Below are positions 4,255 through 48,145 of a DNA stretch of 59,371 bases, piece after piece. Positions within the stretch are counted from its first letter, which is position 1, and the number at the start of each line of letters is the position of its first letter. Both the position numbers and the translations under genes were made by a program. The stretch is from a virus. The notes under the pieces were generated by a model. It had not been told where the DNA came from. It was given only the letters and a program-made list of their open reading frames with translations, and searched no databases. The stretch lies in the IMG/VR virus record IMGVR_UViG_3300048918_000104, positions 1-59,371 of that record; one strand, written 5' to 3'.

Positions 4255-4614
4255 ATGTCGATTCTCGAAAACCTGCTGAAAGCCATCGAAGCCAACACCG
4301 CAGCTTTGGAAGCAAATACCAAAGCCCAGGCTGCAGGCGGCTCGGCAGGTACGGCGAAGGCCACGACCACGAAGGCCACGGCCACCAAGGAAACGAAGGC
4401 AGCAGCGCCGAAGTACTCGGCAGAAGAAGTGAAGGCTGCGGCGGTCAAGGTCAAGGACGCATTCGGCCAACCGGCGGCGAAGGAACTCATCAAGGAAGCC
4501 GGTAAGGCCGACGAACTGAAGGCCATCAAGCCGGAGAACTACGACGCGTTCGTCGAGGCTTGCGAAGCCAAGCTGGAAGCAGGCAACGAGCAGCAGCCGG
4601 GCGACGACCTGTAA
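4255..4614 (+). CDS. Hypothetical Ala/Lys/Thr-rich protein with C-terminal QPGDDL tail
   Basis: AGGAG RBS; 119 aa; followed by strong terminator. Confidence 0.7.
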   Translation: MSILENLLKAIEANTAALEANTKAQAAGGSAGTAKATTTKATATKETKAAAPKYSAEEVKAAAVKVKDAFGQPAAKELIKEAGKADELKAIKPENYDAFVEACEAKLEAGNEQQPGDDL

Positions 4615-4634
4615 GCAGCGCCGCGCTGTAGAAG

Positions 4635-4672
4635 ACGGCTCACGGATAGCTTCGGCACCGTGGGCCGTTTTT
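4635..4672 (+). terminator. Rho-independent terminator
   Basis: ACGGCTCACGG ... CCGTGGGCCGT 11-bp stem (one mismatch) followed by TTTTT. Confidence 0.65.
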
Positions 4673-4762
4673 ACTGGACCATTCGGAGACCAACGATGTC
4701 CTTTATCACCTTCTGGACTCTGATCCTGCACATGATGTATCAGCCGCCTCGGGAGCGCAAAG

Positions 4763-4972
4763 ATGCACCTGAACAAACAACAGAGGTATGAGCGCGCCCT
4801 CGCCCGCCGCGAAGGGCAGACAGCCTACGCGAACGGCCTGACGCTCGACAAGAACCCGTACGACGTTGGCACGGACTGCCACTGTCAATGGGATGTAGGC
4901 TGGGAGGAAGCTGCTCGCAGCGATGACAAGTCACCTGGCCTCAGTCTCGGAAATAACTTCCAAAACGCATGA
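4763..4972 (+). CDS. Rmf/CrpP-like small protein
   Basis: 69 aa; RYERALARREGQTAYANG..NPY..CQWDVGWEEA aligns by eye with E. coli RMF RLERAHQRGYQAG..CPY..SQWLGGWREA; GGGAG RBS. Confidence 0.5.
   Translation: MHLNKQQRYERALARREGQTAYANGLTLDKNPYDVGTDCHCQWDVGWEEAARSDDKSPGLSLGNNFQNA
4949..4961. repeat. Palindrome, one mismatch
   Basis: GGAAATAACTTCC, 7 nt before ATG 4969. Confidence 0.7.
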
Positions 4973-6300
4973 AACTCAGACCCGTCGATCTCGAAGAACT
5001 GGCAAGACGCGAGCGGTCGCACTCGATCTTCTCGCCCTCCAGTTCGCACATGTGGATGTCCTGCGCCGGTTCGCTGATTCCGAACGCGATGGCAGGCGAG
5101 TCGAACTCCTACGTGGCCGCCGAGGGAACCGTTGCTCACTCGGTAGCGGAAGAGTGGCTCGCGACCGGCGTACGGCCTCTCAGCCGTATTGGCGACCACG
5201 TTTGGGTCGGCGACGAGATCGACGGGTTCGATATCGAGATCACACGAGAGATGTTGGACCACGTACAAAGCTATGTGCGCTGGTGCAACGAACTGCCGGG
5301 CGACCATTACGTCGAAGCCCGGATCGACATCTCCCGTCTGACCCCGATCCCCAATCAGGGCGGCACGTCGGATCACGCGGCCTGCCACTGGACACCGGAA
5401 GATGGCGGTACGCTGTACGTGACTGACCTGAAGTTCGGCCTCGATATCATCAAGGCGAAGTGGAACTCGCAGCTTTTGCTCTACGCGCTCGGCCGGTTCT
5501 TCGAACTGGACTGGATTTACAGCTTCCGCCGAATTGTGTTGCGTATCGCACAGCCGCGCTGTGACAACTTTGATACATGGGAGATATCGCGCGATGAACT
5601 ACTCATCTTCGCCGGACAGGTCGTCGTTCGTGCGCAACAGGCTTGGCGTCTCAATGCTCCGCGTACGCCGAGTTCGAAGGCATGTCAATATTGCAGCGAG
5701 AAGGAAGTCTGCCCGGCCCGCCTCGTGTGGCTTGAGCGGCTTGTTGCGGGTCGCTTCGACGAGCTTTCGGTGGAAGTAACTTCCGATGAGATGATTGCTG
5801 CGCTCGAAGATATGCATGATCCGCTCGGTGGCGACATTTTCGACGTGCCTGCGGTAGAGTCGCTGTCGGTCGAGGACATGGGGTACATCCTGCCTCATCG
5901 CAGCATGATCGTGAACTGGTTCAAGGCGATGTTCGAGCGCGCCGAGCAGGCTGCTCTTGTTGACCGCATAGAAGTCCCGAACATGAAGCTCGTTCGCAAG
6001 AAGGGCTCGCGCGAATGGACTGAAGAAGAGGCCCGCATCAAGGCCGAGTGGGAGACGATGGGCCTCGACAGCGCGAAGCTGTTCGTGACGAAGATCATCA
6101 GCGTCGCGCAAGCTGAGAAAGAATTGATATCGGCAGGGATGAAGCCTGCTGACCGAAACATCTTCCTGACGCCGCTCTATGAAAAGCGCCAGGGAGGACC
6201 AACACTAGCGCCGCTTTCTGATAAGCGCGCTGTGTACGATGATGGGCTGGCAAGCCGCTTCGACGATATCGAAGATGACGACCCTGCCGATGATCTTTAA
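4969..6300 (+). CDS. PD-(D/E)XK (Cas4/RecB-like) nuclease, DUF2800-type
   Basis: N-terminal SPSSSHMWMSCAGS, DLKFG..NSQLLLYALG core, C-terminal CQYCSEKEVC cysteine cluster; ATGA-coupled to upstream gene; ends DPADDL. Confidence 0.85.
   Translation: MKLRPVDLEELARRERSHSIFSPSSSHMWMSCAGSLIPNAMAGESNSYVAAEGTVAHSVAEEWLATGVRPLSRIGDHVWVGDEIDGFDIEITREMLDHVQSYVRWCNELPGDHYVEARIDISRLTPIPNQGGTSDHAACHWTPEDGGTLYVTDLKFGLDIIKAKWNSQLLLYALGRFFELDWIYSFRRIVLRIAQPRCDNFDTWEISRDELLIFAGQVVVRAQQAWRLNAPRTPSSKACQYCSEKEVCPARLVWLERLVAGRFDELSVEVTSDEMIAALEDMHDPLGGDIFDVPAVESLSVEDMGYILPHRSMIVNWFKAMFERAEQAALVDRIEVPNMKLVRKKGSREWTEEEARIKAEWETMGLDSAKLFVTKIISVAQAEKELISAGMKPADRNIFLTPLYEKRQGGPTLAPLSDKRAVYDDGLASRFDDIEDDDPADDL
5772..5784. 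repeat. Palindrome GGAAG-N3-CTTCC, exact copy
   Basis: GGAAGTAACTTCC inside the nuclease CDS (read E-V-T-S). Confidence 0.9.
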
Positions 6301-6350
6301 TCCGTGAAAACGTTAATCCGACAATCCCGCAAAACCGAAGGAGTTTCAAA

Positions 6351-7010
6351 ATGGCAAAGCAAGAAGTCACCGTACTGAAGAAGGTCAAGAACGGCGTCCT
6401 GTATAGCGACGGCACGATCCGTATCGAGCGCGTGCGTCTCTCCTACCCGCACGTCGGCAAGGCGCACGCAATGCTCGACAAGAAGACCGGCCAGATGGGT
6501 AAGGCTATCTTTTCGCTGACGGCTCTCCTGAACAAGACCGAGCATGAAGAAGTCTGCAAGCTCATCACGGAGAACAACAAGCGCCTGATGGCTGAGAACA
6601 AGGTCGATAAGGTGAAGGCCGACGCCAAGTTCATCCGCGACGGCGACGGCGAACTTGTTGACAGCGAAGAGGCTATTGGACACTGGACTGTTTCGTGCCG
6701 CGAGAACCGCAAGCCGCTGGTCATGAACAAGGCCGGTCAGTTCATCGAAGCCGAAGAGGCTGAACAGATGTTCTACGGCGGCTGCTGGGGCCACGTCATC
6801 ATTCGTCCGTGGTATCAGGAGTCGCCGGAGTACGGCAAGCGCCTGAACTGCGGCTTCGTGTCGGTTCGCTTCTGGAAGGATGATGATTCGTTCGGTGAAG
6901 GCCGCATCAGTGCTGAAGATGTGGCAAACCGCTTCGGTGATATCGAGGACGACGAAGGCGCTGATGCAGGCGGCTTCGCTACGGCCACGGATGACGACGA
7001 CGATCTGTAA
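6351..7010 (+). CDS. ssDNA-binding protein, DUF2815-type
   Basis: 219 aa; VRLSYPHV start motif; acidic tail ending DDDDDL; canonical position between DUF2800 nuclease and DNA polymerase. Confidence 0.7.
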   Translation: MAKQEVTVLKKVKNGVLYSDGTIRIERVRLSYPHVGKAHAMLDKKTGQMGKAIFSLTALLNKTEHEEVCKLITENNKRLMAENKVDKVKADAKFIRDGDGELVDSEEAIGHWTVSCRENRKPLVMNKAGQFIEAEEAEQMFYGGCWGHVIIRPWYQESPEYGKRLNCGFVSVRFWKDDDSFGEGRISAEDVANRFGDIEDDEGADAGGFATATDDDDDL

Positions 7011-7063
7011 CCATAGAAGACACATAAATATCCTGTAGTGGGGACGCCCTTGAGGGCTTTGGG

Positions 7064-7090
7064 GGCCGACAGTACGTCGGCCTTCTTTTT
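7064..7090 (+). terminator. Rho-independent terminator
   Basis: GGCCGAC-AGTAC-GTCGGCC followed by TTCTTTTT. Confidence 0.7.
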
Positions 7091-7094
7091 GACT

Positions 7095-7107
7095 GGAAGT
7101 AACTTCT
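7095..7107. repeat. Palindrome, one mismatch
   Basis: GGAAGTAACTTCT, abuts the DNA polymerase ATG 7108, 4 nt after the terminator. Confidence 0.8.
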
Positions 7108-9162
7108 ATGGCTTATGTTGACTTCGCAGACGAACTGCACTTCGACTTTGAAACGAAGAGCGAGACGGACTTAAAAACAGCGGGCCTCATGCGGTATGCA
7201 CTCGACCCCTCTACCGAGGCCATGCTGTGCAGCTACAAGTTCACTTCATGGGGCAAGAACGCCGTCCCGAAGCTGTGGGACTACAACGACACTCGTACCT
7301 TCCCGGCAGAGCTTGCCGACGCGATTGAAGACCCGCGCGTGATGAAGGTCGCGTTCAACGCACAGTTCGAGCGCAACATCTGCAAGCATGTTCTCGGCCT
7401 CGAAACGGACTATAAGTCGTGGCGCTGCGGCATGGTCCTCGCGTACTGCCTGTCGTTCATCGGCGGCCTTGGCGACATCGCAAAGCAGATCGGCGCGCCC
7501 ATCGACAAGCAGAAGATGACCGAGGGCGACCGTCTGATCCGCCTGTTCTGCATGCCCCAGCGCGTGACGAAGAACCAGCCCTACCGCTGGCGCGACAGCC
7601 TGACGGACGAGGAAGATTGGGAGACGTTCCGCGAGTACTGCATTCAGGATACGGTTGCTGAGATCGACCAGTGGAACAAGTTCATCAAGTACCCTATCGG
7701 CGAGAAAGAGTGGGACATCTACGCGTTCGATCAGGAAGTGAATGATCGCGGCTACCCGCTCGACATGAAGTTCATCCACAACGCAATCGAGATGGTCAAC
7801 AAGCGCAAGGCTGAGATCATCGCCGAGATGCGAGACATCACCAGTCTGGCGAACCCGAACTCGCCGCAACAGCTTCTTCCGTGGCTGCGTGAGCGCGGAT
7901 ACCCGTTCAAGGACTTGCAGAAGGCGAGCGTCAAAAAGGCGCTGTCGAACTTCAAGGACGCCATGACCGAGGATGCGATCAAGGCTGCAAAGCTGCGTCG
8001 CTGGTCGGCATCGACGGCAGCGTCGAAATATATGGTCTATGTCCGGCGTGAGGTCGGCGGTCGTTACATGATGGGTCTGCAGATGGCCGGTGCGCAGCGC
8101 ACGCGCCGACATGGCGGCCGGGGCGCACAGCCGCACAATCAGGCCCGTACACCGAAAGACCTCGAAGGAGATGGCCTACTGGAAGTAGCTACCAATCTGG
8201 TCCGTGACGGCGACTACGAGGGCCTGAAACTGTTCTCGAAGGAGCCTATGGAGGTTCTCGCGGGCTGCGTCCGGTCAGCGATTCGTGCGCCTGAAGGCAA
8301 AGAGCTTCGCGTCACCGACCTTACCTCGGTAGAGTCTATCGGCGTCGGATACGTGTCGATATGCGAGCGCATGCTCGACGTGTTCCGCAACGGCAAGGAC
8401 ATCTACAAGGATTTCGGCACGGTGATGTACGGCATCGCCTACGAAGAGATCACGAAGCAGCAGCGGACCGACAGCAAGCCTGCAATTCTCGGCGCGGGCT
8501 TCGGCCTCGGCGGCGGGACACTGAGCGAGGAAGGCGAGCGTACAGGCTTGTGGGGCTACGCGGAGAGCATGGGCATTGATATGTCTCAAGCGGATAGCCA
8601 TCGGTCTGTGACGGCCTTTCGTGACGACTATGCGCCGGAGGTAGTCAGCACATGGGGCGAACTGGACGCCGCCGTGCGTGGAGTCATGAAAGACGGCAAG
8701 CCGCGTACTGCAGGGCGCTTCCGGATCGAGTACCTGCGCCCTTTCCTGCTGATGTGGCTCCCGAGCGGTAGGCCTATCTTCTACTACAAGCCGCAGATCG
8801 ATGAGATACCTATGGTGAGTAAGGCCGGACGGCCCTACACCCGGTATCAGTTCTCGTACATGGGCAAGTCGAAGGTCGGCAACAAGTGGGTTCGTGTCAA
8901 CTCATGGGGCGGCAAGCTGATCGAGAATGGAGTCCAGGCGTTCTGCCGCGACGTGCTGTTCGAGAAACTGCTTGCCCTGCACGAACTCGACTTCTACCTT
9001 GTCCTGCACGTACACGATGAAGGCGTCAGCGAAGAGGACGAGGACGACGACGTTCACACGCTCGACGTGATGAATCGTGAGTTCCGGAAGCCGCCATCAT
9101 GCGCGCCTGACATGCCGATGGGCTCGGCTGGCTACTGCAATCCGTTCTATAAGAAGGACTAA
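7108..9162 (+). CDS. Family A DNA polymerase with 3'-5' exonuclease domain
   Basis: ExoI FDFET; pol motif A DLTSVES, motif B RTDSKPAILGAGFGLG, motif C HVHDE. Confidence 0.92.
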   Translation: MAYVDFADELHFDFETKSETDLKTAGLMRYALDPSTEAMLCSYKFTSWGKNAVPKLWDYNDTRTFPAELADAIEDPRVMKVAFNAQFERNICKHVLGLETDYKSWRCGMVLAYCLSFIGGLGDIAKQIGAPIDKQKMTEGDRLIRLFCMPQRVTKNQPYRWRDSLTDEEDWETFREYCIQDTVAEIDQWNKFIKYPIGEKEWDIYAFDQEVNDRGYPLDMKFIHNAIEMVNKRKAEIIAEMRDITSLANPNSPQQLLPWLRERGYPFKDLQKASVKKALSNFKDAMTEDAIKAAKLRRWSASTAASKYMVYVRREVGGRYMMGLQMAGAQRTRRHGGRGAQPHNQARTPKDLEGDGLLEVATNLVRDGDYEGLKLFSKEPMEVLAGCVRSAIRAPEGKELRVTDLTSVESIGVGYVSICERMLDVFRNGKDIYKDFGTVMYGIAYEEITKQQRTDSKPAILGAGFGLGGGTLSEEGERTGLWGYAESMGIDMSQADSHRSVTAFRDDYAPEVVSTWGELDAAVRGVMKDGKPRTAGRFRIEYLRPFLLMWLPSGRPIFYYKPQIDEIPMVSKAGRPYTRYQFSYMGKSKVGNKWVRVNSWGGKLIENGVQAFCRDVLFEKLLALHELDFYLVLHVHDEGVSEEDEDDDVHTLDVMNREFRKPPSCAPDMPMGSAGYCNPFYKKD

Positions 9163-9165
9163 AAG

Positions 9166-9453
9166 ATGGTCGATCTGTATCGGGGGAAGAAAGAATCGGT
9201 TCTGGAAAAAGACGCGAAGAAGTTCATGAAGACTCGCGGCTGGACTGTTCGAAAGATGAAGTGGCTCGACAGCAACGGTGCGCCGGACGACTTCTGCGCC
9301 CGCAACGGCAGGATCATCCTCGCCGAGTTCAAACGGCCGGACGACCCCGCGCCGACAGTCGAGCAACAGATTCAGCACGCAGAACTCCGGCTTGCTGGCG
9401 TCCAGGTGGAAGTTATTTCCAGCATCGAGAGGGTCTATGAAGTTTTCTATTAA
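9166..9453 (+). CDS. VRR-NUC domain nuclease
   Basis: 95 aa; GAPD ... AEFKR ... Q core in VRR-NUC order; sits between PolA and SNF2 helicase. Confidence 0.7.
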   Translation: MVDLYRGKKESVLEKDAKKFMKTRGWTVRKMKWLDSNGAPDDFCARNGRIILAEFKRPDDPAPTVEQQIQHAELRLAGVQVEVISSIERVYEVFY

Positions 9454-11101
9454 GCCGTGGCTAGAACGGCTTTTCGGCGAGGTCCTTCGGGGCCTCGATG
9501 CGCTTCATGTGTACCAGAAGACTGCCGTTCAGTTCCTCCGCGATACGCCGTTCAGCGCTCTCTTCATCGATCTCGGCCTCGGTAAGACAATCATCGTCGC
9601 GACGCTCATAGCCGAGCTACTGGACGAGGGTGAGTGGGGTCCGTGGCTCATCATCGCGCCGAAGCGCGTTGCACGGCAGACGTGGCCGCACGAGTTCAAG
9701 GAATGGCGGCATATAGCCCACATCAGCAACCGGCCGCCGTTCGACAAGCAGTACCGCAAAGCCCTCAAGGACGCTGCGAAGAAGAAGGTGGACTTCGAGC
9801 GCAAGGCTATGCTGATCGACGAGCCCGAGTTCGTGCGACCCGGCCTGAGAGAGCAGGAGGCCCGGTACGCCCTCTTCCATGACACGTTCAAGAAGAAGCT
9901 CGCGTTGATCGGTCGGCAGGAGCGTGAGCGCGTGTCTCACACCGAGATCGTCAAGGCGTTCAAGCGTAACCCCGCAGTCGTCCACATCATCAACCGTGAG
10001 CAGCTTGAGCATCTGGTTCAGGCATGGGGTCCGAATCGCTGGCCCTACCGGCTCGTCGCCATCGACGAGTCGCAGTCGTTCAAGAACCACAAGAGCGGCC
10101 GGTTCGAGGCTATGAAGGCGGTCCTGTACCGGCTGAAGCGTCTGCACCTACTGACAGCCACGCCAGCAGCGGAGACCTACGAGGACCTGTTCGCTCAGAT
10201 ATACCTGCTAGATCGCGGCAAGCGCCTCGGGTCGAACATCACCCGATACCGCGAGTCATACTTCCGGCGCGACCGCAGCGGTTATAACTGGAAGTTATTT
10301 CCAGGCATGGAGAAGCAGATCGCCGAGAAGATCGCCGACATCTGCCTGACGATGAAAGCTAAGGATTACCTCGATCTCAGAGAGCCGAAGACCATTCCCG
10401 TAAAGGTTCACCTTTCGCCCGACATGATGAAGGCCTACCGGCGCGCAGCGCGCGAAGCGGTCATCAAGGTCGAGGACAAGATCATCAACGGCGACACGGC
10501 GGCGGCCCTGCAGCAGAAGCTCATGCAGATCGCCTCGGGCTTCGTGTACGACGAGAACAAGAAGGCGTACGACCTGCATGACGCGAAGATTCAGACGCTG
10601 CGTGAGATCGTCGAAGAAGCTGGCGGCCAGCCGGTCCTCGTGTCGTACTGGCATAACGCGTCGCGCGAGCGGCTGAAGAAGGCGTTCCCGAAAGCAGTCG
10701 TGATGGACCCTGACGGCAAGTGTACGAAGGCGTGGAACGACGGCAAGATACCGATGATGCTGGTACAGCCTGCGAGCGCCGGAGCCGGTCTGAACCTGCA
10801 GCACGGCGGCCACATTCTCGTCGTGTTCGACATGTTCTTTTCTAACGAACTCTATACGCAGCTTGTCGGCCGTCTCGCCCGGCAGGGGCAGAAAGACCTC
10901 GTGCTGGTCTATCTTCTGATGGCGGTCGGCACTGTGGATGAGATCGCCCGCGTTGCAGTGATCGACAAGGAGGCCGGACAGCAGCTATTGTTCAAGCTGT
11001 TGCAGGACATCCGCGAGGCGGTCGCACGCGGCGACGAGATACCAGACTTCGATTCTGATGATGCATACGACGAACTACTGACGGACGATCTGAACTTATG
11101 A
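9437..11101 (+). CDS. SNF2-family helicase
   Basis: Motif I DLGLGKT, motif II AIDESQSF, motif VI GRLARQGQ; start taken at ATG 9437 (MKFSIKPW) rather than the Arg/Ser-rich ORF-track extension. Confidence 0.88.
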   Translation: MKFSIKPWLERLFGEVLRGLDALHVYQKTAVQFLRDTPFSALFIDLGLGKTIIVATLIAELLDEGEWGPWLIIAPKRVARQTWPHEFKEWRHIAHISNRPPFDKQYRKALKDAAKKKVDFERKAMLIDEPEFVRPGLREQEARYALFHDTFKKKLALIGRQERERVSHTEIVKAFKRNPAVVHIINREQLEHLVQAWGPNRWPYRLVAIDESQSFKNHKSGRFEAMKAVLYRLKRLHLLTATPAAETYEDLFAQIYLLDRGKRLGSNITRYRESYFRRDRSGYNWKLFPGMEKQIAEKIADICLTMKAKDYLDLREPKTIPVKVHLSPDMMKAYRRAAREAVIKVEDKIINGDTAAALQQKLMQIASGFVYDENKKAYDLHDAKIQTLREIVEEAGGQPVLVSYWHNASRERLKKAFPKAVVMDPDGKCTKAWNDGKIPMMLVQPASAGAGLNLQHGGHILVVFDMFFSNELYTQLVGRLARQGQKDLVLVYLLMAVGTVDEIARVAVIDKEAGQQLLFKLLQDIREAVARGDEIPDFDSDDAYDELLTDDLNL

Positions 11102-11751
11102 AAATGTATCCAGCCACACGAGAAGAGAGACCAGACAGCAAGGTACAGGACGCCGATTCGAGAGCAATGCTGTTCGAGGGAGCCAGCATTTCGCAGTTGG
11201 CCGCCCTGTTCGGTCGGGACAACCGCACCATTACGCAGAAGATTCAGGGACTGCGATCTGTCGGCAAGCGCGCCGGACATCCCATCTACAAGATCAGCGA
11301 GGCCGCAGCATATCTGGTCAAGCCTATCGGCGATATCGAGGATCACATCAAGAAGATGTCTCCTGATGATCTGCCTCCGCGTCTGCTGAAGGAGTTTTGG
11401 GCGGGCCAGCACGCGCGCCTGAAGTTCGAGGAAGACCGGGCCGACCTGTGGCGCACGCAGGATGTAGTCGAGCATTTTGCCGAGGCGTTCAAAGTCGCCC
11501 GCACGACTATCATGCTGGCAGTCGATCAGGTCGAGCGCATCACGTCGCTCACAGACACTCAGCGCAACCTGATGCTCGCGCAGATGGACCAGTTGATGAA
11601 GTCCCTGAATGAAAACCTTGTAACGGCATTCCAAAATGAACCTGACCGAACCTTTGAAGTTCCTTCCAGCGATGACGGACAAACCTCTTCAGGAGAGGAA
11701 CCCGAACGGGCCGCCGCAGAAGAGCAGCCAGACCCGGCAGAAGGTCTATAA
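11098..11751 (+). CDS. terS: Terminase small subunit (Nu1/DUF1441-like)
   Basis: 217 aa, N-terminal HTH-like ISQLAALFGRDNRTITQKI, directly upstream of and overlapping GpA-type TerL. Confidence 0.6.
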   Translation: MKMYPATREERPDSKVQDADSRAMLFEGASISQLAALFGRDNRTITQKIQGLRSVGKRAGHPIYKISEAAAYLVKPIGDIEDHIKKMSPDDLPPRLLKEFWAGQHARLKFEEDRADLWRTQDVVEHFAEAFKVARTTIMLAVDQVERITSLTDTQRNLMLAQMDQLMKSLNENLVTAFQNEPDRTFEVPSSDDGQTSSGEEPERAAAEEQPDPAEGL

Positions 11752-39657: not shown

Positions 39658-40095
39658 TTACAGGCCGCAGAACTCTATCTCAGCCTCGATGCAGGCAATC
39701 TGCACCTTACGCAGTTCGAACGATCCGTACTTCGCCTCGATCCAGCCAGCATCTACCTCATCAAGCTCCATGAAGAAGCTCTCAGGCGTCTCGTCGATGC
39801 GGGACTCCATCATGGCAATCGGCGAGTCGCTCGGGTCATGATTGAAGTAGCGCATCGCCGGTAGGTGAGCGGGGTTGAGCGGCAGGACCTGACGCGGCTT
39901 GATGCCCATGTCGAGTTGCCGGGCCGCCTCGGTGCAAGCTGCTCGCCACACGTTCATCGGCCAGTAGCGTTCGAGCGTCGTGCCGAGCTTCGCAAGGTCA
40001 ACGCCTTTCCCCACGTCGCCGGACAGCAGGATCATCGCGTCAGCCAGGGCGCGGGCGTTGACCGCGAGCGGCGCGTCAGATGATGTCGTCGCCAT
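39658..40095 (-). CDS. Hypothetical protein (last gene of early-left operon)
   Basis: 145 aa ORF, overlaps upstream gene by 20 nt. Confidence 0.6.
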   Translation of the reverse strand: MATTSSDAPLAVNARALADAMILLSGDVGKGVDLAKLGTTLERYWPMNVWRAACTEAARQLDMGIKPRQVLPLNPAHLPAMRYFNHDPSDSPIAMMESRIDETPESFFMELDEVDAGWIEAKYGSFELRKVQIACIEAEIEFCGL

Positions 40096-40783
40096 CGACC
40101 TGCTCCGCTTTCACGTCGAGGCACTTGTTGGTAGCTTCGCGGACCGCCAGATCGGCGTCCAGCAGCTTTATGAACGCTGTGGCACGCTTAGACCCATCCG
40201 ACACGTAACGAAGGTCTTGCAGGCTCTGTACGCCCGCACCAACAGCAAGCATATGCTTCGTCCGGACGGTCCCGAACATCTCCTTGTACTGGATCGCACG
40301 AACTTTAAGTTGGTGATACCAGTCGGGGCCGGGAGACTCGTCGAACGGGTCGATGATTTTACGGACCGTGTCGGGGCTCGCACCGTACGCCTGCATGAGT
40401 GACTCCCGAGCGCCCTTGAACGACGTGCCGGTAGCTTCCTCGGCCGCTGAAGGGCAGGGCGGCGAAGCCGGAGCGATTTTGTCCGGGGTGATGCGTCCGC
40501 GCATGATGGCGGCGTATTCGTCCTTTGGGATCGCAAGCGTCATCGAGACTTTCGGGCGTGGCTGCAGAGTCTGGCCGCTCCCTATTGCGGTGAACGAACC
40601 GTCGTTACCGACGATTGCGAGGGCGATTTCGCGACCGACCTTCTGCTCGACGTAATCGACGAGGACCGCCTTCGCGTCGAGCGGCGAGAGACGGAACGCG
40701 TCGGGGCTGTCGTACTTGCGAACTTCGACGACCTCGATGCGGCGGCTGAAACGTTTCTTCTCTTTAGAGGGATTGGAGTTCAT
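40076..40783 (-). CDS. Hypothetical protein
   Basis: 235-aa ORF in operon orientation. Confidence 0.6.
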   Translation of the reverse strand: MNSNPSKEKKRFSRRIEVVEVRKYDSPDAFRLSPLDAKAVLVDYVEQKVGREIALAIVGNDGSFTAIGSGQTLQPRPKVSMTLAIPKDEYAAIMRGRITPDKIAPASPPCPSAAEEATGTSFKGARESLMQAYGASPDTVRKIIDPFDESPGPDWYHQLKVRAIQYKEMFGTVRTKHMLAVGAGVQSLQDLRYVSDGSKRATAFIKLLDADLAVREATNKCLDVKAEQVDGDDII

Positions 40784-41306
40784 GGATGCTATGGTCCTTA
40801 ATGACTTCGAAAGGGATCGGACTGAGGTCGCCCCGGAGGTACAGCGGGTGAGCGGGGGAGCCGTCCAGATTCAGTTGTATGGCGTGAAGAGGTCTTCCCA
40901 TCCACTCGGCCGCCAGGCTGATCTTGCGCACGCGGTCTTCCAGAATCGGCTTCACCTTACCCCACGCAGCGACTACGAGCGCCGTGTCGGGGTGCGCTAT
41001 GGCGTCGAGGACGTGCTTCATGTCGAATCCGGCCGCGATGGGGTCTGAGTGCGTCCGCAAGACATACTCGTACATCTCGGTCGGTCGGTGTGTGCGGAAT
41101 GAGCAGAGGTTCACGATACGCAGGCCGTCGTAGCCCCACGCGCGTGCGAAGGCGATGCAGCGCTTTATGGTCGCATCGTCGATCTTCGCGTCACCCCATG
41201 AAGGGTTGAGCATGATGAAGACGACGATGCGACAACCGATGTCCCACTCGCGGCGCAGCCAGTATCGCAGCGAGCCGTCAGGACTCAAGCGGGCATCGCG
41301 CAGCAT
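40764..41306 (-). CDS. DUF1643-family protein
   Basis: RYWLRREW..VVFIMLNPSWGD..DDATIKRCIAFA..IVNLCSFR..VVAAWG..GSPAHPLYL follows the DUF1643 signature. Confidence 0.7.
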   Translation of the reverse strand: MLRDARLSPDGSLRYWLRREWDIGCRIVVFIMLNPSWGDAKIDDATIKRCIAFARAWGYDGLRIVNLCSFRTHRPTEMYEYVLRTHSDPIAAGFDMKHVLDAIAHPDTALVVAAWGKVKPILEDRVRKISLAAEWMGRPLHAIQLNLDGSPAHPLYLRGDLSPIPFEVIKDHSIHELQSL

Positions 41307-42373
41307 TACAGATCGGCCGCTTGTGCTTCGAGTAGCTTGTCGGCGTGATCCTTCACCGCCGCATCGCAGGCGTCGGCCGCCGTGTCGCCAGTGCCTTGCG
41401 CGAGCGTCTCTGCGTCAGGGTTCTCGTCGCGCGAGGCCGACAGGATCGTCGCCGCGTAGCCCACACCGGCCGCGTACGCGATCTCCATGTACGGCTTGTA
41501 CGCGTCCTCGGCGTCAATCGCGGCCTGAAGCACCGTATCGAAGAGCGCGATGAAGTCGTTCACGGCGGTCGGAGACACGGACTCACCGCCGCCAGCGCTC
41601 TTGCGCTTCGCCTTCTTCTTCGCCACGACCTTACCGAGCGTCTTCGCCGTAACCTTTCGTCGGCCGTCGCCGGTCGGCGAGACCGCCTTCTGTGCCTTGA
41701 GGAAGCGCTTCTCGACATCCTCCGGCGTGTAGTTGCGCAGTTCGTCGATGACCGTCGTCGACGAGATTTCACCGTCGATCATGGCGTTCCGGATGACCTC
41801 GGTCGCGTTCGACAGAAGGATCAGGTCATCGATCCATCGACGCGTGCTGCCGAGCACTTTGGCGATGTCCTTGACGTGCATGCCGTCGTTCTGCAGGCGT
41901 CGCACGACGATGGATGCTTCGAGAGGCGAGGGCGGCTCACCACTGTTATCGAGCATGAGCCCGGCCGTCAGGTCGCGGAAGTTGATGTTGGTCTTGAACT
42001 CGACCGGGATGCCGTTGATCTTCGACTTGCCGGTGAGCTTCTTGTTGGCGACCTTCACAGCCTCGGTACGGTGATGGCCGTCATGGACGGCGACGCATGG
42101 CTTGCCGTCGATCTTGAGCGGCAGCACAGCGATAGGCTTCGTCGGATCGTAGCCGTGATTGACGATCTGCTCTTCGAGGAACTTCACGCGAGCCGCGTAG
42201 TTCTTCGAGTGGACGCGCATGTTGTAGCCCGGCAGGATCACGAGATTTTCGGGCGGTACGAAGTTGTGGCCGCGATCATCGGTGAACGCGCCGGCCGCTG
42301 CCAGCGCCTCGTCGATGCCGCACTCTTCAAGGACGAAGCTCACTTCGCTCGGGGGGATGTACGTCTTTGCCAT
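41306..42373 (-). CDS. ParB/Srx-fold DNA-binding protein (ParB/KorB-like; no ParA partner present)
   Basis: N-terminal ParB-type domain with VAVHDGHHRTEA, then HTH-like PLEASIVVRRLQNDGMHVKDIAKVLGSTRRWIDDLILLSN, Lys-rich linker, helical C-terminus; GGAG RBS. Confidence 0.7.
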   Translation of the reverse strand: MAKTYIPPSEVSFVLEECGIDEALAAAGAFTDDRGHNFVPPENLVILPGYNMRVHSKNYAARVKFLEEQIVNHGYDPTKPIAVLPLKIDGKPCVAVHDGHHRTEAVKVANKKLTGKSKINGIPVEFKTNINFRDLTAGLMLDNSGEPPSPLEASIVVRRLQNDGMHVKDIAKVLGSTRRWIDDLILLSNATEVIRNAMIDGEISSTTVIDELRNYTPEDVEKRFLKAQKAVSPTGDGRRKVTAKTLGKVVAKKKAKRKSAGGGESVSPTAVNDFIALFDTVLQAAIDAEDAYKPYMEIAYAAGVGYAATILSASRDENPDAETLAQGTGDTAADACDAAVKDHADKLLEAQAADL

Positions 42374-42461: not shown

Positions 42462-42470
42462 CAAATCTTG

Positions 42471-42483: not shown

Positions 42484-42488
42484 AGCTT

Positions 42489-42956: not shown

Positions 42957-42959
42957 GGC

Positions 42960-43280
42960 TTACCCCCGAACCTGTTTGAGAGCCTCTTCCATTGCACGGA
43001 GGGCGTCGCTGGCGTTCTTGAACCCCATCGCAACCGCCTTGCGGTTCAGTGCCTCGTAAGCCCCCAGCTTCGATAACGTGTTGTTGCCGATGCCGATCTC
43101 GAAGGGCTTCACAAACGCCGTGCCCTTCAGTTCAGCGATAGGTATCTTCCAGCCGCAGACCCGATAGCCTTCGTCGGGGTGCGGGACGTTGCACTGAGGG
43201 AACGAGTCGAGGCTCGCGATCTCGGTACGGAAGAAGCCGGGCTTACTGAGTGTCCGTCGCTTCAGATGCGGTTTGTTCAT
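42960..43280 (-). CDS. Hypothetical protein
   Basis: 106 aa, ATGA-coupled to upstream gene. Confidence 0.6.
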   Translation of the reverse strand: MNKPHLKRRTLSKPGFFRTEIASLDSFPQCNVPHPDEGYRVCGWKIPIAELKGTAFVKPFEIGIGNNTLSKLGAYEALNRKAVAMGFKNASDALRAMEEALKQVRG

Positions 43281-43975
43281 AGGTCATCCGCAGGGTCGAA
43301 AGTAGGGTTGAGCCACTCCGGCTCGGCGTGCGGCGTGTCGGCAGTGCCCATCATCGGCATCAGCACTGCGAGCATGTTCGGATTGAACGGGAAGAAGATG
43401 ATCGCGGCCTTCTCCTTGTTTATACCGGACTGTGCGCAGTACATGTCGAAGGTCTTCTGTGTCGATTGGCCGGGGTTCGCCATGGCGACGAGTACGCCGA
43501 GGTAGTGTGCGTTCAGCTTGCCCGGCATGCCCGGCCGGAGATCGCTCCAGTTCGGCAGAACGCTGCGCCACTTCGGATAGCTGTCGCCGTGAACGAACTG
43601 GCCCTTGTGCAACTCACTGGAACGCTGCCCGGCCGTCTTGACGCTCATGTGGTCCTCGCCGTTTTCGAGCGACAGCGTACGGCGTCGGATATTGTCGCCA
43701 CGGAGCAGGGCGCGCTCGGCCGCATTCAGACCGAGGCAGAAGGGCGCGCTCGTCGATCCGGACGGGTCGAACTGGATGACCATGATGTTTCCATCACAGC
43801 CGATCATGTAGACCCCGTTCTTCGGATGCGGCTCGATCAGCACGCGGGTCAGGGCGTCGGCGAATTTCGGATGCGGCGGGCTGTCGTCACCGCGAACGAA
43901 ACGGAACGCATGATGGAGGCGCTCGGCGTCGATGCTGAAGGTCAGTTCAGCCATGTCTCGGGTCGTGCGGCTCAT
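43277..43975 (-). CDS. Hypothetical protein, weak sliding-clamp-like segment, C-terminal DPADDL
   Basis: ATG 43975 with AAGGAG 8 nt upstream and ATGA coupling; VLIEPHPKNGVYMIGCDGNIMV loosely recalls the beta-clamp ..l.atDg.r.. segment. Confidence 0.6.
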   Translation of the reverse strand: MSRTTRDMAELTFSIDAERLHHAFRFVRGDDSPPHPKFADALTRVLIEPHPKNGVYMIGCDGNIMVIQFDPSGSTSAPFCLGLNAAERALLRGDNIRRRTLSLENGEDHMSVKTAGQRSSELHKGQFVHGDSYPKWRSVLPNWSDLRPGMPGKLNAHYLGVLVAMANPGQSTQKTFDMYCAQSGINKEKAAIIFFPFNPNMLAVLMPMMGTADTPHAEPEWLNPTFDPADDL

Positions 43976-44394
43976 CGAACGGACTCCTTGATCCACTTCA
44001 CGAGTTGGTCGGCGCTGCCGTGCTGCTTCTTCGGATTGCCCGCGACGCGCCAGCGGTTCTTAGCCGGGAAATATTCGACACGGGGGAGGCCGATGACGCG
44101 GATGATTATCCGGCGGTCGCCCTCTTCCGCGACGTATCGGATTCGATGCTCTTCGAGCGTTGCCAGGCAAAGCTGAACATGCCCTTCTTCCGCGTTATCC
44201 GCCGAGTACGCAGCTACGGCCAGCATCTTGCGCTCGTTGGTCGGCTCGATGGCGTTGAATTTCGACAGTTGATCGATCTGGCGAAACGCCTGCACCAGAT
44301 TAGACGTTTCGTCGATCACCTTCGTGAAGCTGCGCGCTGCTGTCGTGAAACTGGCAGAAGTCGTATCCAGCACTGCGTTGATGTTGCGTTCCAT
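43972..44394 (-). CDS. Hypothetical protein
   Basis: 140-aa ORF in operon orientation. Confidence 0.6.
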   Translation of the reverse strand: MERNINAVLDTTSASFTTAARSFTKVIDETSNLVQAFRQIDQLSKFNAIEPTNERKMLAVAAYSADNAEEGHVQLCLATLEEHRIRYVAEEGDRRIIIRVIGLPRVEYFPAKNRWRVAGNPKKQHGSADQLVKWIKESVR

Positions 44395-44398
44395 GGTG

Positions 44399-44581: not shown

Positions 44582-44590
44582 CTGAACCCC

Positions 44591-44830: not shown

Positions 44831-44839
44831 GATGTACTC

Positions 44840-45049
44840 CTAAAGATCGCCCGCAGGGTCTTCCGTCAGGCCGCGCCAAAAGACGACGCGTTTTGCCGTA
44901 TCCCATGCACGGATCGAGTGTTTATAGGTTGCTGTCGCGGTCTGTGCCCCGAACACAAACCCGCCGATTGCCGTCTCGTACTGAATCTCGTACTGGCCTT
45001 CACGTAGCGGCTTCACATAGGCTGGATACCAATCGGTCCTCGGCAACAT
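44840..45049 (-). CDS. Hypothetical small protein ending DPAGDL
   Basis: 69 aa; ATG 1 nt after upstream stop, GGGAAGTAAC upstream. Confidence 0.55.
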   Translation of the reverse strand: MLPRTDWYPAYVKPLREGQYEIQYETAIGGFVFGAQTATATYKHSIRAWDTAKRVVFWRGLTEDPAGDL

Positions 45050-45050
45050 G

Positions 45051-45323
45051 TTACTTCCCGGCGATAACGAGTTTGCTCGCGCCCGGCAGACGTGCCTCTG
45101 CTTTCGGGAGTTCGTTGATCGTGAGCTTGAACGAACCGGCGACCGGACCCGGCTCGCGCTTGATCGTGTACTTACCGTTCAGGTCGGCCATATCGCCCGG
45201 AAGGATCGTGACTTCCTTCTTACCGAACTTCACCATCAGGACTGCGGCGAGTGCGTCGAGTTGACGGATGACCATCTGATTCTGCTGCTGCGCCATGCCT
45301 GCAAGGACTCTGCTGTTCTTCAT
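45051..45323 (-). CDS. Hypothetical protein
   Basis: 90 aa; GGAGAGG RBS; first gene after promoter 45383..45411. Confidence 0.6.
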   Translation of the reverse strand: MKNSRVLAGMAQQQNQMVIRQLDALAAVLMVKFGKKEVTILPGDMADLNGKYTIKREPGPVAGSFKLTINELPKAEARLPGASKLVIAGK

Positions 45324-45382
45324 TGTTACCTCTCCGTGGTGCGGTTCCCGGTAGCCGACCGGGCGCGGGGTTTCAGGACCGG

Positions 45383-45411
45383 ATATTAGTGATCCGGTTA
45401 AAACCTGTCAA
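45383..45411 (-). promoter_or_regulatory. Sigma70-type early promoter
   Basis: Minus strand TTGACA-GGTTTTAACCGGATCAC-TAATAT (17-nt spacer). Confidence 0.65.
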
Positions 45412-45429
45412 ACACTTTTACGTATATTT

Positions 45430-46257
45430 TTAAGATGAAGCGCCGGAGGCAGGCTCGGCCGGAGCCGCCGACTGCTTTTCGAGCAGGCCCTGCAGTTCGA
45501 CGACGTGACGGACGATCTCCTGCGTCTTCAGTGCCTTGAGCGAGTCGTTCGGCGTGTTGCCATCCGGACCAGACATCATCGTCGGCCAGTCCTGAATGTT
45601 CATGATGAAGCCGTTCAGGTCCCACAGAGACGCGCCGCTGAACAGGGTCCGCGAGATCACCTGGTTGATCTGCGTGTTGATTGCCTGATTCACGGCCGGG
45701 TCGATGCTCGGGTCCGTGTCGATCAGGACGACCCAATTACCGGCGACGTGCTGCCACTTCACGAACGCGATCAGGTCGGCCTGGAACTGGTCGAGCGCTG
45801 CCTGTTGTGAGGTCGGGTCGAGTTGCGTGAAGCCCTTGATGTCGGCCATTGTGAAGTTCTCGACAACCCATGTCGTCGGATCGGGCGCGGCCTGAAGCTG
45901 CGCGTCGGTCGGCAGCGTCGAGCCGAAGTTCGTCGCCACATAGTCATGCAGCGTCGTTGAGTCCATGACGCCGACCTGCACCTGTGCGGTCACGCCTGCG
46001 GCAGTGAGCGCGGCCTGCAGCGCTGCAGCGGTATCGTCGCCCTGCCCGTCTGCGACTGCCTCGCTGATCGGATTCAGGCTCTTCAGCATGGCCGTGGTCT
46101 TTGCCTTGCCCGCCATCGACGACGTGCCGTAGAGCGCGATGCGCAGCGGCGAGTGCAGATTGTTGCCATCGTTACCGCCTCCGCCGCCGCCACAGGCCGC
46201 GATGGTGAGAGATGCCGCAATGCCGACGAACCCCAGCATGAAACGTTTTTTGTACAT
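45430..46257 (-). CDS. Secreted lipoprotein
   Basis: MYKKRFMLGFVGIAASLTIAAC signal peptide plus lipobox, then a Gly6 linker; 275 aa. Confidence 0.7.
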   Translation of the reverse strand: MYKKRFMLGFVGIAASLTIAACGGGGGGNDGNNLHSPLRIALYGTSSMAGKAKTTAMLKSLNPISEAVADGQGDDTAAALQAALTAAGVTAQVQVGVMDSTTLHDYVATNFGSTLPTDAQLQAAPDPTTWVVENFTMADIKGFTQLDPTSQQAALDQFQADLIAFVKWQHVAGNWVVLIDTDPSIDPAVNQAINTQINQVISRTLFSGASLWDLNGFIMNIQDWPTMMSGPDGNTPNDSLKALKTQEIVRHVVELQGLLEKQSAAPAEPASGASS

Positions 46258-46267
46258 TTTGATTACC

Positions 46268-46675
46268 TCAAGAAAGAAGGAATTGTGTAAGTGCGACTGC
46301 GCCGTAGATGAGACCGCTGAGAAGCACTCCGACGAGCGCACCGAGGAAGACCCCGGCAAGCACCGCAGCGATGTCGCTGCCGTTCTCCCAGCACATCTTT
46401 ACGACGCCGACAATCATACAGATCAGGATGACGGCTCCTATGCTCCCCCACAGGATTTTGTCCCCCACAGTCGCCGGTCCGGACTGCGGATGTACGAACT
46501 CGACACACGAGGCGAACGTCTGCATGTTATCGACGCTGCCTCGCGGGTCCTGCGACAGAACTACCTGACAGCGCGCCAGGTGTGCCTGACGTTCAGCCTC
46601 GGCCGCCGCTGCTGCAGCCGCTGCCGCCATCGCGGTAGCCGCCGCGCCGTTATCACCACTACTGCTTGCGGGCAT
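46268..46675 (-). CDS. Membrane protein with poly-Ala N-terminal region
   Basis: AGGAGA RBS; two to three C-terminal TM segments (GAVILICMIVGVV, AAVLAGVFLGALVGVLLSGLIYGAV). Confidence 0.6.
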   Translation of the reverse strand: MPASSSGDNGAAATAMAAAAAAAAAEAERQAHLARCQVVLSQDPRGSVDNMQTFASCVEFVHPQSGPATVGDKILWGSIGAVILICMIVGVVKMCWENGSDIAAVLAGVFLGALVGVLLSGLIYGAVALTQFLLS

Positions 46676-46877
46676 TCTGAATCTCCTGCGCTTGTTTAAC
46701 CACGGCCTGCACGGTGCGGCCCATCTTTTCGAAGCTCACATCCCACACCATTCGCGTTGCGTAGCAGTAGGCCCGAAGCGGCCAGTACTTCAGAATGACG
46801 TAACGGGGCTCGCCGTCCCGCAGACACACCTGATACTCCTTGTGGTCTCGGATTACGGTGACGATTGCTGCGCTCAT
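46659..46877 (-). CDS. Hypothetical small protein
   Basis: 72 aa from ATG 46877; first gene after promoter 46907..46935. Confidence 0.5.
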   Translation of the reverse strand: MSAAIVTVIRDHKEYQVCLRDGEPRYVILKYWPLRAYCYATRMVWDVSFEKMGRTVQAVVKQAQEIQNARKQ

Positions 46878-46892
46878 CTGATGCCCCGGTTG

Positions 46893-46905
46893 AGAAGTTA
46901 CTTCC
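46893..46905. repeat. Palindrome, one mismatch
   Basis: AGAAGTTACTTCC, 1 nt downstream of the -10 of promoter 46907..46935. Confidence 0.75.
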
Positions 46906-47203
46906 AATTATGAAGGTGTGGTTTAACCTTGTCAACGGGTTTTTCCTGCTGCGGATGCGAGATGCGGATCGAAGTAACGCGCACGCCCCCTACCGCCGTC
47001 GCTATCTTTGCGAAGTTAGCAGCCTCGGTCGGTCGGAACGGTCCGGAGACACTGACGACCTGCGCGCCGTGCAGCAGCACGTTCACGATGATTGGCGGAT
47101 TAGCGATGTAGTTCTCGACTTCACGAAAAAGCTCCATCCCCCACGTCGGGCCGTTGAGCTTCTCTGCCTCAAGGAGCTTACTGAGCAGTTCGATAATTTG
47201 CAT
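46898..47203 (-). CDS. Hypothetical protein
   Basis: 101 aa from ATG 47203 (MQIIELLSK..); stop codon lies in the centre of palindrome 46893..46905. Confidence 0.6.
   Translation of the reverse strand: MQIIELLSKLLEAEKLNGPTWGMELFREVENYIANPPIIVNVLLHGAQVVSVSGPFRPTEAANFAKIATAVGGVRVTSIRISHPQQEKPVDKVKPHLHNWK
46907..46935 (-). promoter_or_regulatory. Sigma70-type early promoter with the palindrome at its start site
   Basis: Minus strand TTGACA-AGGTTAAACCACACCTT-CATAAT, followed 1 nt later by GGAAGTAACTTCT (46905..46893). Confidence 0.65.
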
Positions 47204-47909
47204 GGTGTTTCCCCGGTACGTACTTCTGGAAGCCGCACTTCGAGCAGGACATAAGCGCCCTGCCGTCGCCGGTCTCTTCGTCCATATCAAGCTCATGGAC
47301 GCAATTGCTGTCGCCTTTCCGGAGAGCCTTCAGCGCTTCGTGAGCCTCTTTGAACTCCTTGTCGATCTGCTTCCAGCCGCCCGTCAGATATCGCCGCAGG
47401 AACCAGTCGATGACGAATGCCTGCTCGTCTTCGGCCTTCGCCCTGATCTCGTATCCGAGAGCCCGGAAGCACTGAGCGTACGGGATACAGGTGAAGTTCG
47501 GCATCCCGAGAATATTTTTCAGATCATCGTTCAGCCGTGCCGGATATGGATTCTGTCGAGGGTCCACCTGATCGCCATTAGCATCCAGCACCAGAACCCC
47601 AAAATCAGATATCCCCGGAGCGGATGACGGGGCTCGGTCCGGCTTCACAGTGCTGCGTTCAGTCTCGTCGAAGGACAGGACGACAATGCTCTCCGGCAGG
47701 CCGTAGCCGCGCTGAATATGAGTTATAGCCCCGCGCACGAAACGGCCTGTCATCTCCATACCGTTTCCGGTATCTGCGATCTCGTGCATCACTATGTCAT
47801 CGCCCTCCGCGTAGCCTCGATCATCGACGCGGACCTCAGCGCGTTTGCTGCGAGTCCATACGTCGCGGAACGGGATCACGTCTGATTTGACGTGGTGGAC
47901 ATTTTTCAT
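47178..47909 (-). CDS. ASCH/DUF3850-domain protein with extra C-terminal domain
   Basis: AAGGAGA RBS; HHVKSDVIPFRDVW..RAEVRVDDRGYAEGDDIVMHE..TGRFV..I..GYGLPESIVVLS follows the DUF3850 pattern. Confidence 0.6.
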   Translation of the reverse strand: MKNVHHVKSDVIPFRDVWTRSKRAEVRVDDRGYAEGDDIVMHEIADTGNGMEMTGRFVRGAITHIQRGYGLPESIVVLSFDETERSTVKPDRAPSSAPGISDFGVLVLDANGDQVDPRQNPYPARLNDDLKNILGMPNFTCIPYAQCFRALGYEIRAKAEDEQAFVIDWFLRRYLTGGWKQIDKEFKEAHEALKALRKGDSNCVHELDMDEETGDGRALMSCSKCGFQKYVPGKHHANYRTAQ

Positions 47910-47920
47910 GCTTCTTCTCC

Positions 47921-48145
47921 TTATAAATCCCATGCGGGATCAGATTTATCCAGCTTCGCGCACACTTCGCGCACAGCGTCCGAGTCGATCTCAAGCCGCA
48001 GCGACGCCTTAACCTGCAGCAGATCGGATAGAACGGCAGAGAACGCGGAGCAGGCCGCGTCGATATCCTCAAGCTCCGGAGCGCTCTTCTTGACTAGCGC
48101 ATTAACGGTCTCGACGAGCCGCCACTTGTTAGCGACCTCACTCAC
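47921..48145 (-). CDS. Hypothetical small protein ending DPAWDL
   Basis: 74-aa helical ORF. Confidence 0.55.
   Translation of the reverse strand: MSEVANKWRLVETVNALVKKSAPELEDIDAACSAFSAVLSDLLQVKASLRLEIDSDAVREVCAKLDKSDPAWDL

Follow-up and report, generated by a model that had tools for sequence, protein, structure and literature searches.

Acidic C-terminal tails on unrelated replication and packaging proteins of a Casjensviridae-like phage may be docking peptides for one shared phage receptor

Bacteriophage T7 is the textbook case of two replisome proteins with look-alike acidic tails that share one site on the polymerase. In Escherichia coli, the C-terminal tip of the single-stranded DNA-binding protein (SSB), ..DDDIPF, is an interaction hub. 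The beta-clamp-binding motif has the consensus QL[SD]LF or QLxLxL near a terminus. In phage T4, the acidic C-terminal domain of gp32 recruits replication proteins, and gp43, gp33 and gp55 share a C-terminal clamp-binding peptide that is read by gp45. We analysed a 59,371-nucleotide stretch of viral DNA (IMG/VR record IMGVR_UViG_3300048918_000104, positions 1 to 59,371; the whole stretch is called the window below), a phage genome of ~59 kb with a guanine-plus-cytosine (GC) content of ~59%, in which at least six unrelated proteins end in a peptide close to DPAxDL. We found that this ending belongs to a broader family of acidic C-terminal tails, and that the last two tail residues change together within each genome. 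In T7, the tails of gp2.5 and gp4 bind a basic patch at gp5's front (K587/K589/R590/R591), and a DTDF peptide is visible in PDB 6P7E (PMC12339929). In crystals of T7 gp2.5, Enc34 ORF6 and two other DUF2815 proteins, a neighbouring molecule accommodates the acidic tail in its concave beta-sheet groove; for Enc34 ORF6, it is the proximal tail that sits there (PMC5686142). The ending of Enc34 ORF6, ..WDEDEV, is deduced from a printed cloning primer (PMC5686142), and the last 11 residues are not visible in the structure (PDB 5odj/5odk/5odl).

The initial annotation had singled out six open reading frames (ORFs) in the window by their shared ending. On re-translation, these ORFs end where it had placed them and with the C-termini it had read (lengths in amino acids, aa):

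orf4255: 4255..4614, plus strand, 119 aa, phrog_7721; tail ..QPGDDL, codons 4594-4611
DUF2800 PD-(D/E)XK-type exonuclease: 4969..6300, plus strand, PF10926 (E = 2e-61), phrog_69; tail ..DPADDL, codons 6280-6297
TerS, the small terminase subunit, DUF1441 type: 11098..11751, plus strand, phrog_141 (E = 9e-46), PF07278; tail ..DPAEGL, codons 11731-11748
orf43277, early protein: 43277..43996, minus strand; tail ..FDPADDL, codons 43280-43297
orf44840, early protein of 69 aa: 44840..45049, minus strand; tail ..EDPAGDL, codons 44843-44860
orf47921, early protein of 74 aa: 47921..48145, minus strand; tail ..SDPAWDL, codons 47924-47941

Three related endings had been pointed out as well, and all are present, although the SNF2 ending lies at the very end of the protein and not merely near it:

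SSB of the T7 gp2.5 and Enc34 ORF6 type, which binds and anneals single-stranded DNA (ssDNA): 6351..7010, plus strand, PF10991, PDB 5odj (E = 3e-38); tail ..DDDDDL, 6990-7007
SNF2-family helicase: 9278..11101, plus strand; ends ..LTDDLNL, tail codons 11081-11098
ParB/KorB-like protein: 41306..42373, minus strand; ends ..AQAADL, codons 41309-41326; a weaker, less acidic member

A heuristic gene call gave 64-65 genes, which encode 17.6k residues. Six called proteins have the pattern [DQ]P[AG]x[DG]L as their last six residues, and it has no internal occurrence in the 17.6k residues; composition predicts ~0.0006 C-terminal matches. In the full six-frame translation, which contains 3184 stop codons, the pattern appears six times, each time right before the stop codon of one of the six genes. 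Endings in DL are found on 7 of 64 proteins (0.33 expected) and endings in L on 14 of 64. To score tails of this kind more broadly, we required a last residue in LIVFMYW and two or more D/E in the five residues before it, a definition that 5.3% of random internal 6-mers satisfy; 13 of 65 window proteins have such a tail (P = 3e-5). As the initial annotation had noted, the codons differ among the copies, and we found that the downstream DNA differs too. The DNA past the six stop codons is unrelated, the gap to the next gene ranges from an ATGA overlap up to 50 nt, and comparison of the downstream contexts revealed no DNA string common to the six gene ends and the next start. The constraint is thus on the peptide, and selection acts on the tail peptide. 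A ribosome-binding site (RBS) or an overlapping start as the cause is ruled out, because the gene ends share no DNA string.

An unrelated 80-kb metagenome contig serves as a contrast and negative control. In this contig (L087:14382-16309), successive small ORFs have the endings ..EAA, ..ETA or ..SKA, and the shared ending is caused by the DNA GGAGGCCGCATGA, which is a Shine-Dalgarno sequence plus an ATGA start/stop overlap. In the window, 7 of the 14 genes that end in Leu use one of the rare codons CTT, CTA or TTA for it, versus 18% internally (P = 0.006), and 42% of genes have an A/T-ending last sense codon despite a third-position GC (GC3) of ~75%.

To see how the tails are distributed among relatives, we collected 80 IMG/VR loci by an exonuclease profile search and added three close relatives, which gave 83 loci in which genes were called and proteins clustered. 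The tail is present on 79/79 SSBs, 73/74 proteins of the orf4255 family, 59/63 TerS and 61/69 primase-helicases of the common type, and on 38/80 DUF2800 exonucleases and 35/78 SNF2 helicases. It is found on 0/32 family A DNA polymerases (PolA), 0/62 TerL, 0/52 gpW-like proteins and 5/40 portal proteins. When the same definition was applied to 52 annotated T7 proteins as a control, only gp2.5 (..EDGDF) and gp4 (..NDTDF) were retrieved. The initial annotation had named a lack of tail conservation in orthologues as something that would refute its idea; the tail is conserved in orthologues of the exonuclease, TerS, orf4255, orf43277, orf44840, SSB, SNF2 and the ParB-like protein, so the idea withstands this test. 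All six window proteins and their retrieved orthologues have a terminal Leu. The tails are rich in D/E or in D-P-A, and those of the ParB-like protein, orf44840 and orf47921 are weakly acidic. Judged from these sequences, DPAxDL is the clade-specific form of a family-wide tail, made of an acidic run followed by [D/E/G]-hydrophobic-COOH. The idea of a shared tail in the initial annotation is therefore real, but its defining feature is the broader Casjensviridae-like tail and not DPAxDL.

The endings are specific to individual genomes. In two loci, L010 and L023, all six families end ..[DE][DE]I; the terminal residue is I or F in L053, V in L076 and L081, and L in most other loci. In phage Chi, the gp2 primase ends ..DDEDEV, gp4 ..EEDDV, the gp6 exonuclease ..DDDDEV, the gp7 SSB ..WEDEV and TerS ..DDDEV, and in Klebsiella phage Soft the same five families also end in V (-[DE][DE]V). 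The endings in BcepNazgul are ..GCGL, ..DDGL, ..NGGL, ..AAGL and ..DPAAGL, and those in Serratia phage Smarc1 and Pseudomonas phage SS2019XI are ..[DEG]L. The last two residues are thus -EV in Chi, -GL in BcepNazgul, and -DL, -DI or -EF in others. We quantified this covariation by within-family permutation in 48 genomes that had been dereplicated at 80% SSB identity. Concordant non-Leu pairs number 26 versus 5.0 expected (0 of 20000 permutations). Across six families, identity at the last position is 282 versus 208 expected and at the penultimate position 147 versus 100 expected (0 of 5000 permutations in each case), while position -3 shows no excess identity (p = 0.14, six families).

At least four independent switches, each involving several proteins, lie scattered over the PolA and SSB trees. 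L010, with all six families in I, is sister to the all-L loci L017 and L021, L053 is nested among all-L genomes, and the Chi-like clade and L064 switched separately. Within a genome, the last two residues thus change in concert on unrelated proteins, a pattern that points to a single binding partner common to them. Two other sources of the pattern were considered and rejected. GC content does not drive the choice of terminal residue: genomes of the I and F types have 59-60% GC, and genomes with 43% GC use L. Gene conversion between tails is ruled out by differing codons, as the terminal codons vary among the tails of one genome (ATA/ATT/ATC, TTC/TTT or GTA/GTT/GTG).

We think it probable, at roughly 60%, that these are docking tails of the T7 type that have been extended to many clients and are read by one phage-encoded receptor. 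We infer the docking role, the single reader, its identity and the functional outcome indirectly. The clients would be SSB, the DUF2800 exonuclease, SNF2, TerS, the orf4255-family protein, the primase-helicase in most relatives and three extra early proteins in the window clade. The disordered acidic run would steer the tail electrostatically onto a basic surface of the DNA-binding type, where the last two residues and the carboxylate would plug a small pocket; a single pocket with a flanking basic surface predicts unrelated carriers, covarying last two residues with the carboxylate, and upstream acidity. The clients would compete for, or alternate on, one site at SSB-coated ssDNA or the replication fork, and docking would recruit them there and/or help strip SSB during hand-over. 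In the window clade, the D-P-A spacer may simply present the D-L end. The initial annotation had also noticed that the exonuclease and SSB share RF(D/G)DIEDD(D/E), which we confirmed (RFDDIEDD at 6256-6279, RFGDIEDD at 6930-6953); this second shared region may mediate SSB-SSB-like contacts by the exonuclease. Family-wide, an aromatic-acidic-hydrophobic motif lies 10-25 residues before the end in SSB (..AW[DG]D[VL]../RFGDI) and in the exonuclease (..[AV]F[DSG]D[LV]../RFDDI).

The tails are probably read by the SSB cleft and/or the polymerase; the tail in T7 binds both. Of all components, only SSB is both present and tail-bearing in every genome, and if its cleft were the receptor, docking would lead to SSB displacement and hand-over. 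The AlphaFold2 model of the window SSB has a mean predicted local distance difference test score (pLDDT) of 89, with a core above 90 and a helix at 188-195, just before RFGDIEDD, at 72-80. It superposes on 5odj/5odl (template modelling score 0.88-0.91; Foldseek E = 3e-21 for 5odj) and on T7 gp2.5 (1je5, E = 4e-6). By this model, T7 gp2.5 and Enc34 ORF6 are structural homologues of the window SSB, and the analogy to T7 gp2.5/gp4 drawn in the initial annotation is apt.

The polymerase is the other candidate, as T7 gp5 is a documented receptor and the family A form is never tailed:

PolA, family A DNA polymerase: 7108..9162, plus strand, phrog_17 (E = 2.5e-84), weak PF00476 match; ends ..FYKKD, with no tail

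The polymerase gene at this conserved position encodes a family A enzyme in 32 related loci and a family-B-like protein of ~690 aa in 48 of 80. The family-B-like polymerases have no Pfam match, and their PDB sequence matches are to E. coli Pol II and an archaeal polymerase; the swap is a non-orthologous replacement within an otherwise syntenic module. An exploratory screen looked for conserved columns with changes in independent dialect-switch lineages. Its strongest signals came from SSB, namely F94 to C and P153 to L, each in both L010 and L053, and P153 adjoins the ssDNA-stacking Trp of Enc34. We treat F94 and P153 as a lead and not as evidence for reader residues, because F and P are retained in Chi-like genomes of the I/V kind and because three L-type genomes also vary at these positions. 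As for the single hub proposed in the initial annotation, which would recruit the proteins in turn, the covariation of the last two residues is what a common reader predicts.

Several observations weigh against this reading. The tail is missing from about half of the exonucleases and of the SNF2 helicases, and the covariation statistics are not fully phylogeny-corrected. Within the closely related clade of L045, SSB switches its terminal residue among F, I and L over short distances while L is kept on the other tails, so a reader in this clade would have to tolerate several hydrophobic residues. AlphaFold2 docks the last 19 SSB residues without confidence (pLDDT ~51), and the receptor-residue screen gave weak and inconsistent signals in the SSB cleft. 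For the polymerase, BLASTP of the window PolA against T7 gp5 gives no alignment, so the T7 basic patch is not transferable to it, and a polymerase-specific site would need to have evolved twice, because the tails persist across both polymerase families.

The clade in which SSB flips consists of L045, L047, L051, L054-L059, L066, L069 and L070; its orf4255-family and TerS tails are the ones that stay L. At the ssDNA-stacking Trp, the SSBs of this clade have DFY where RPW is otherwise conserved.

Almost every annotated carrier is a DNA-binding protein (SSB, exonuclease, SNF2, TerS, the ParB-like protein and the primase-helicase), which would also fit cis autoinhibition, in which each acidic tail mimics DNA on the basic DNA-binding surface of its own protein and there is no shared partner. 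We consider this explanation unlikely. Deletion of the tail of Enc34 ORF6 unmasks binding to double-stranded DNA (PMC5686142), and AlphaFold2 places the gp2.5 tail in gp2.5's own groove (PMC12339929), both in its favour. However, autoinhibition does not predict that the last two residues change jointly across up to six unrelated proteins per genome, it leaves aside the 69- and 74-aa proteins that bear the tail without a detectable DNA-binding domain, and AlphaFold2 gave no confident cis docking of the window SSB tail. Autoinhibition in cis and docking in trans could coexist, as in T7. A reader supplied by the host, such as host SSB, a chaperone, a protease adaptor or a nucleoid protein that the phage hijacks, would make the endings track host lineages. 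Host hubs were proposed in the initial annotation, and such a reader would suit both the persistence of the tails when the phage polymerase family is swapped and the fact that our analysis pinned down no phage-encoded receptor. The host clamp and host SSB look unlikely, because two Salmonella phages differ in their endings (-EV in Chi, L/I/F in SD-12_S18), and we regard host readers in general as quite improbable: Serratia phage Smarc1 (-L) and Klebsiella phage Soft (-V) differ although their Enterobacterales hosts are related, and L010 has all six tails switched to Ile relative to its sister genomes. In addition, the tails match neither the clamp-binding QL[SD]LF nor the SSB tip DDDIPF, and QLxL occurs in none of them.

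A single reader would explain the covariation equally well if the tail were a C-degron or stability signal, through which one protease or adaptor would coordinate the turnover of early, replication and packaging proteins; as in C-degrons, the motif sits strictly at the C-terminus, and its last residues matter. Nevertheless, we know of no bacterial C-degron that is built on an acidic run, docking is the documented role of the homologous gp2.5 tail, and an abundant, stoichiometric SSB would be an odd target for degradation, which together make this explanation very improbable. We give almost no weight to an artefact of chance, composition or DNA-level effects (RBS, overlapping start or gene conversion). 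The ..EAA run in L087 demonstrates that a DNA-level cause exists elsewhere, but in the window six matches stand against ~0.0006 expected, with no wrong-frame or internal occurrences, and the six sites are without common codons or downstream context. In the other genomes checked, the terminal codons differ between tails, and GC has no predictive value.

Docking tails of the T7 type with one phage-encoded receptor therefore remain the explanation that we favour. An extension of it, which we consider possible but doubtful, is that the tails form a C-terminal address code. In such a code, one phage reader would recognize the last two residues and the carboxylate on up to ~10 clients and so couple replication, recombination and cos-packaging (through TerS), and the endings -EV, -GL, -DL, -DI and -EF would have co-evolved to be mutually orthogonal. 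If this is true, co-infecting relatives could not exchange replisome and packaging parts, and the code would act as a built-in barrier of hybrid incompatibility.

The individual carriers differ in how much can be said about them. The orf4255 protein has an N-terminal amphipathic helix, a low-complexity linker rich in G/S/T/A/K, a helical domain of ~45 aa and the acidic tail. Its homologues lie upstream of the exonuclease in 74 loci, all but one of them tailed, and ..[DE]DDL is the ending in close relatives. Pfam gave no match for the window protein, and PDB sequences gave no convincing one for the family profile. In Klebsiella phage Soft, this family is labelled 'putative RecT', a label that looks unfounded. 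Exonuclease orthologues (66-88% identity) end DPADDL, DPTDDL or DPAADL, and close SSB orthologues end ..DD[AD]DDL; each of the 79 SSB homologues in the loci ends in a hydrophobic residue, and the 120 best database homologues of SSB all end in L or I. SNF2 relatives end ..NLDL or ..DYDL.

In TerS, DPAEGL is identical in L001, L003 and L036. D-P-A is also found in the TerS of BcepNazgul (DDDPAAGL), and TerS of other loci have weaker DP forms (..EDPDQAL, ..EDPDAL). In more distant Casjensviridae, the TerS of Rhodobacter phage RcAqua and of Ruegeria phage DSS3-P1 end ..DGEE and ..SDLDV, respectively, so the tail is not intrinsic to every DUF1441 TerS.

Among the early proteins, orf43277 has an ambiguous start (43996, 43975 or 43954), and its sole family match is a weak one to the RusA-like phrog_3007 (E = 2e-8). 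Its four orthologues (61-78% identity) all end WLNPxFDPA[DEG]DL. The profile of this protein has no PDB sequence match, and an AlphaFold2 model from 5 sequences is unusable at a mean pLDDT of 34. The orf44840 orthologue (L085:776-985) ends ..EDPVADL, while no orthologue of orf47921 was retrieved when related loci were searched with single early proteins; neither protein has a convincing Pfam or PHROG match. A second metagenome scan returned only two distant loci, both without tails, and the ParB-like query returned nothing from metagenome contigs. The ParB-like orthologue ends ..EAAADL. Three further genes of the window bear on the tails or on their neighbours:

235-aa protein: 40076..40783, minus strand; ends ..VDGDDII, codons 40079-40096, an acidic tail with terminal Ile
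VapE-like primase-helicase: 132..2795, minus strand; ends ..SPADEKYI, without a canonical tail
95-aa ORF: 9166-9453, where relatives have a VRR-NUC/endonuclease gene (97-aa family, 62 loci)

The 235-aa protein has an orthologue (L084:3551-4123) that ends ..DELDDI. The closest relatives of the window primase-helicase end ..ERYV, ..SKYK or ..RRYR. The VapE-like primase-helicase of the window clade is a distinct type, forming a cluster of 5 loci, and the loss of its tail goes along with the gain of DPAxDL tails by extra early proteins. The 95-aa ORF has no Pfam match, and because it occupies 9166-9453, the true start of SNF2 is probably downstream of the GTG at 9278.

By gene content and protein similarity, the window is a Casjensviridae-like phage of the Chi / Enc34 / BcepNazgul group. 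The conserved module of this group begins with the primase-helicase, a small regulator, the orf4255-like protein, the DUF2800 exonuclease, the DUF2815 SSB and the polymerase, and continues with the VRR-NUC-position gene, SNF2, DUF1441 TerS, gpA-like TerL, the gpW-like protein and the portal. The window has the VapE-like primase-helicase, small ORFs, orf4255, the DUF2800 exonuclease, the DUF2815 SSB and the family A polymerase, followed by the 95-aa gene, the SNF2 helicase, DUF1441 TerS, gpA-like TerL, the gpW-like protein and the portal. This is the same order as in L003 and L004 and in the annotated genomes of Chi, Smarc1, BcepNazgul and Soft. Identity to the closest isolates is only 47% (SSB) to 60% (TerS), and megablast of 10 kb found no close GenBank phage at the DNA level, only matches of 72-74% over at most ~550 bases. 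No clamp gene was detected in the window.

In L004 (14236-14772) and in Klebsiella phage Soft (L096:8626-9156), an HNH homing-endonuclease gene lies between the polymerase and the VRR-NUC-position gene; the L004 gene has NUMOD4/HNH_3 domains, and the window is without this insertion. In the window region 53000-58000, GC falls to 0.535-0.56, and there are plus-strand genes that are low in GC3 (0.53-0.64), one of which encodes a 304-aa protein with a strong phrog_26133 match; the region may be recently acquired accessory DNA.

Our literature searches turned up no description of such tails being shared among proteins of these phages. The same ending is found on five to ten unrelated proteins, TerS and hypothetical proteins among them, and it co-evolves within each genome, which suggests that the T7 principle is much broader in a large, widespread family to which the model flagellotropic phage Chi belongs, as does Enc34 with its solved SSB structure. 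If the docking explanation is true, members of the replication and packaging network could be nominated from sequence alone among "hypothetical" phage proteins, and a link would be predicted between DNA packaging (TerS) and the replication/recombination machinery. The tails would also offer a tractable system for finding the reader, with peptides, dialect swaps and suppressor genetics in Chi on Salmonella, and a natural example of co-evolving short-linear-motif codes.

When we compared the tails with described systems, E. coli SSB was similar in that its C-terminal peptide is acidic, finishes in a hydrophobic residue with its carboxylate and serves docking in DNA metabolism; this peptide (SSB-Ct) is also mentioned in PMC13490951. 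In E. coli, however, one tail has many receptors, whereas here many proteins bear tails, so that the E. coli case cited in the initial annotation has the opposite polarity. The [IL]-P-F signature is absent: the window SSB ends DDDDDL, and no tail has P-F. The T4 clamp peptides resemble the tails described here in that unrelated phage proteins share a C-terminal peptide for one hub, but the T4 peptides are hydrophobic and the tails here are acidic. Enc34 ORF6 is a direct homologue of the window SSB, with an acidic tail of its own; the paper on it treats the tail as a property of SSB only, without mention of other proteins (PMC5686142).

T7 gp2.5 and gp4 are similar in several respects. In both cases the tail is disordered and acidic with one terminal hydrophobic residue and a free carboxylate, unrelated proteins of one phage share the terminal residue (F on both T7 proteins), and, in T7 as in most relatives of the window including Chi (gp2), the primase-helicase is tailed as well. 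In contrast to T7, where 2 of 52 proteins carry the tail, at least six families do so here, and the carriers include TerS, a PD-(D/E)XK exonuclease, SNF2 and small hypothetical proteins. The terminal residue is aliphatic (L/I/V) in most genomes here and Phe in T7, and many relatives use a family-B-like polymerase. The window clade differs further by adding the D-P-A spacer and by its primase-helicase without a tail. Lastly, the endings here, unlike those of T7, are specific to each genome.

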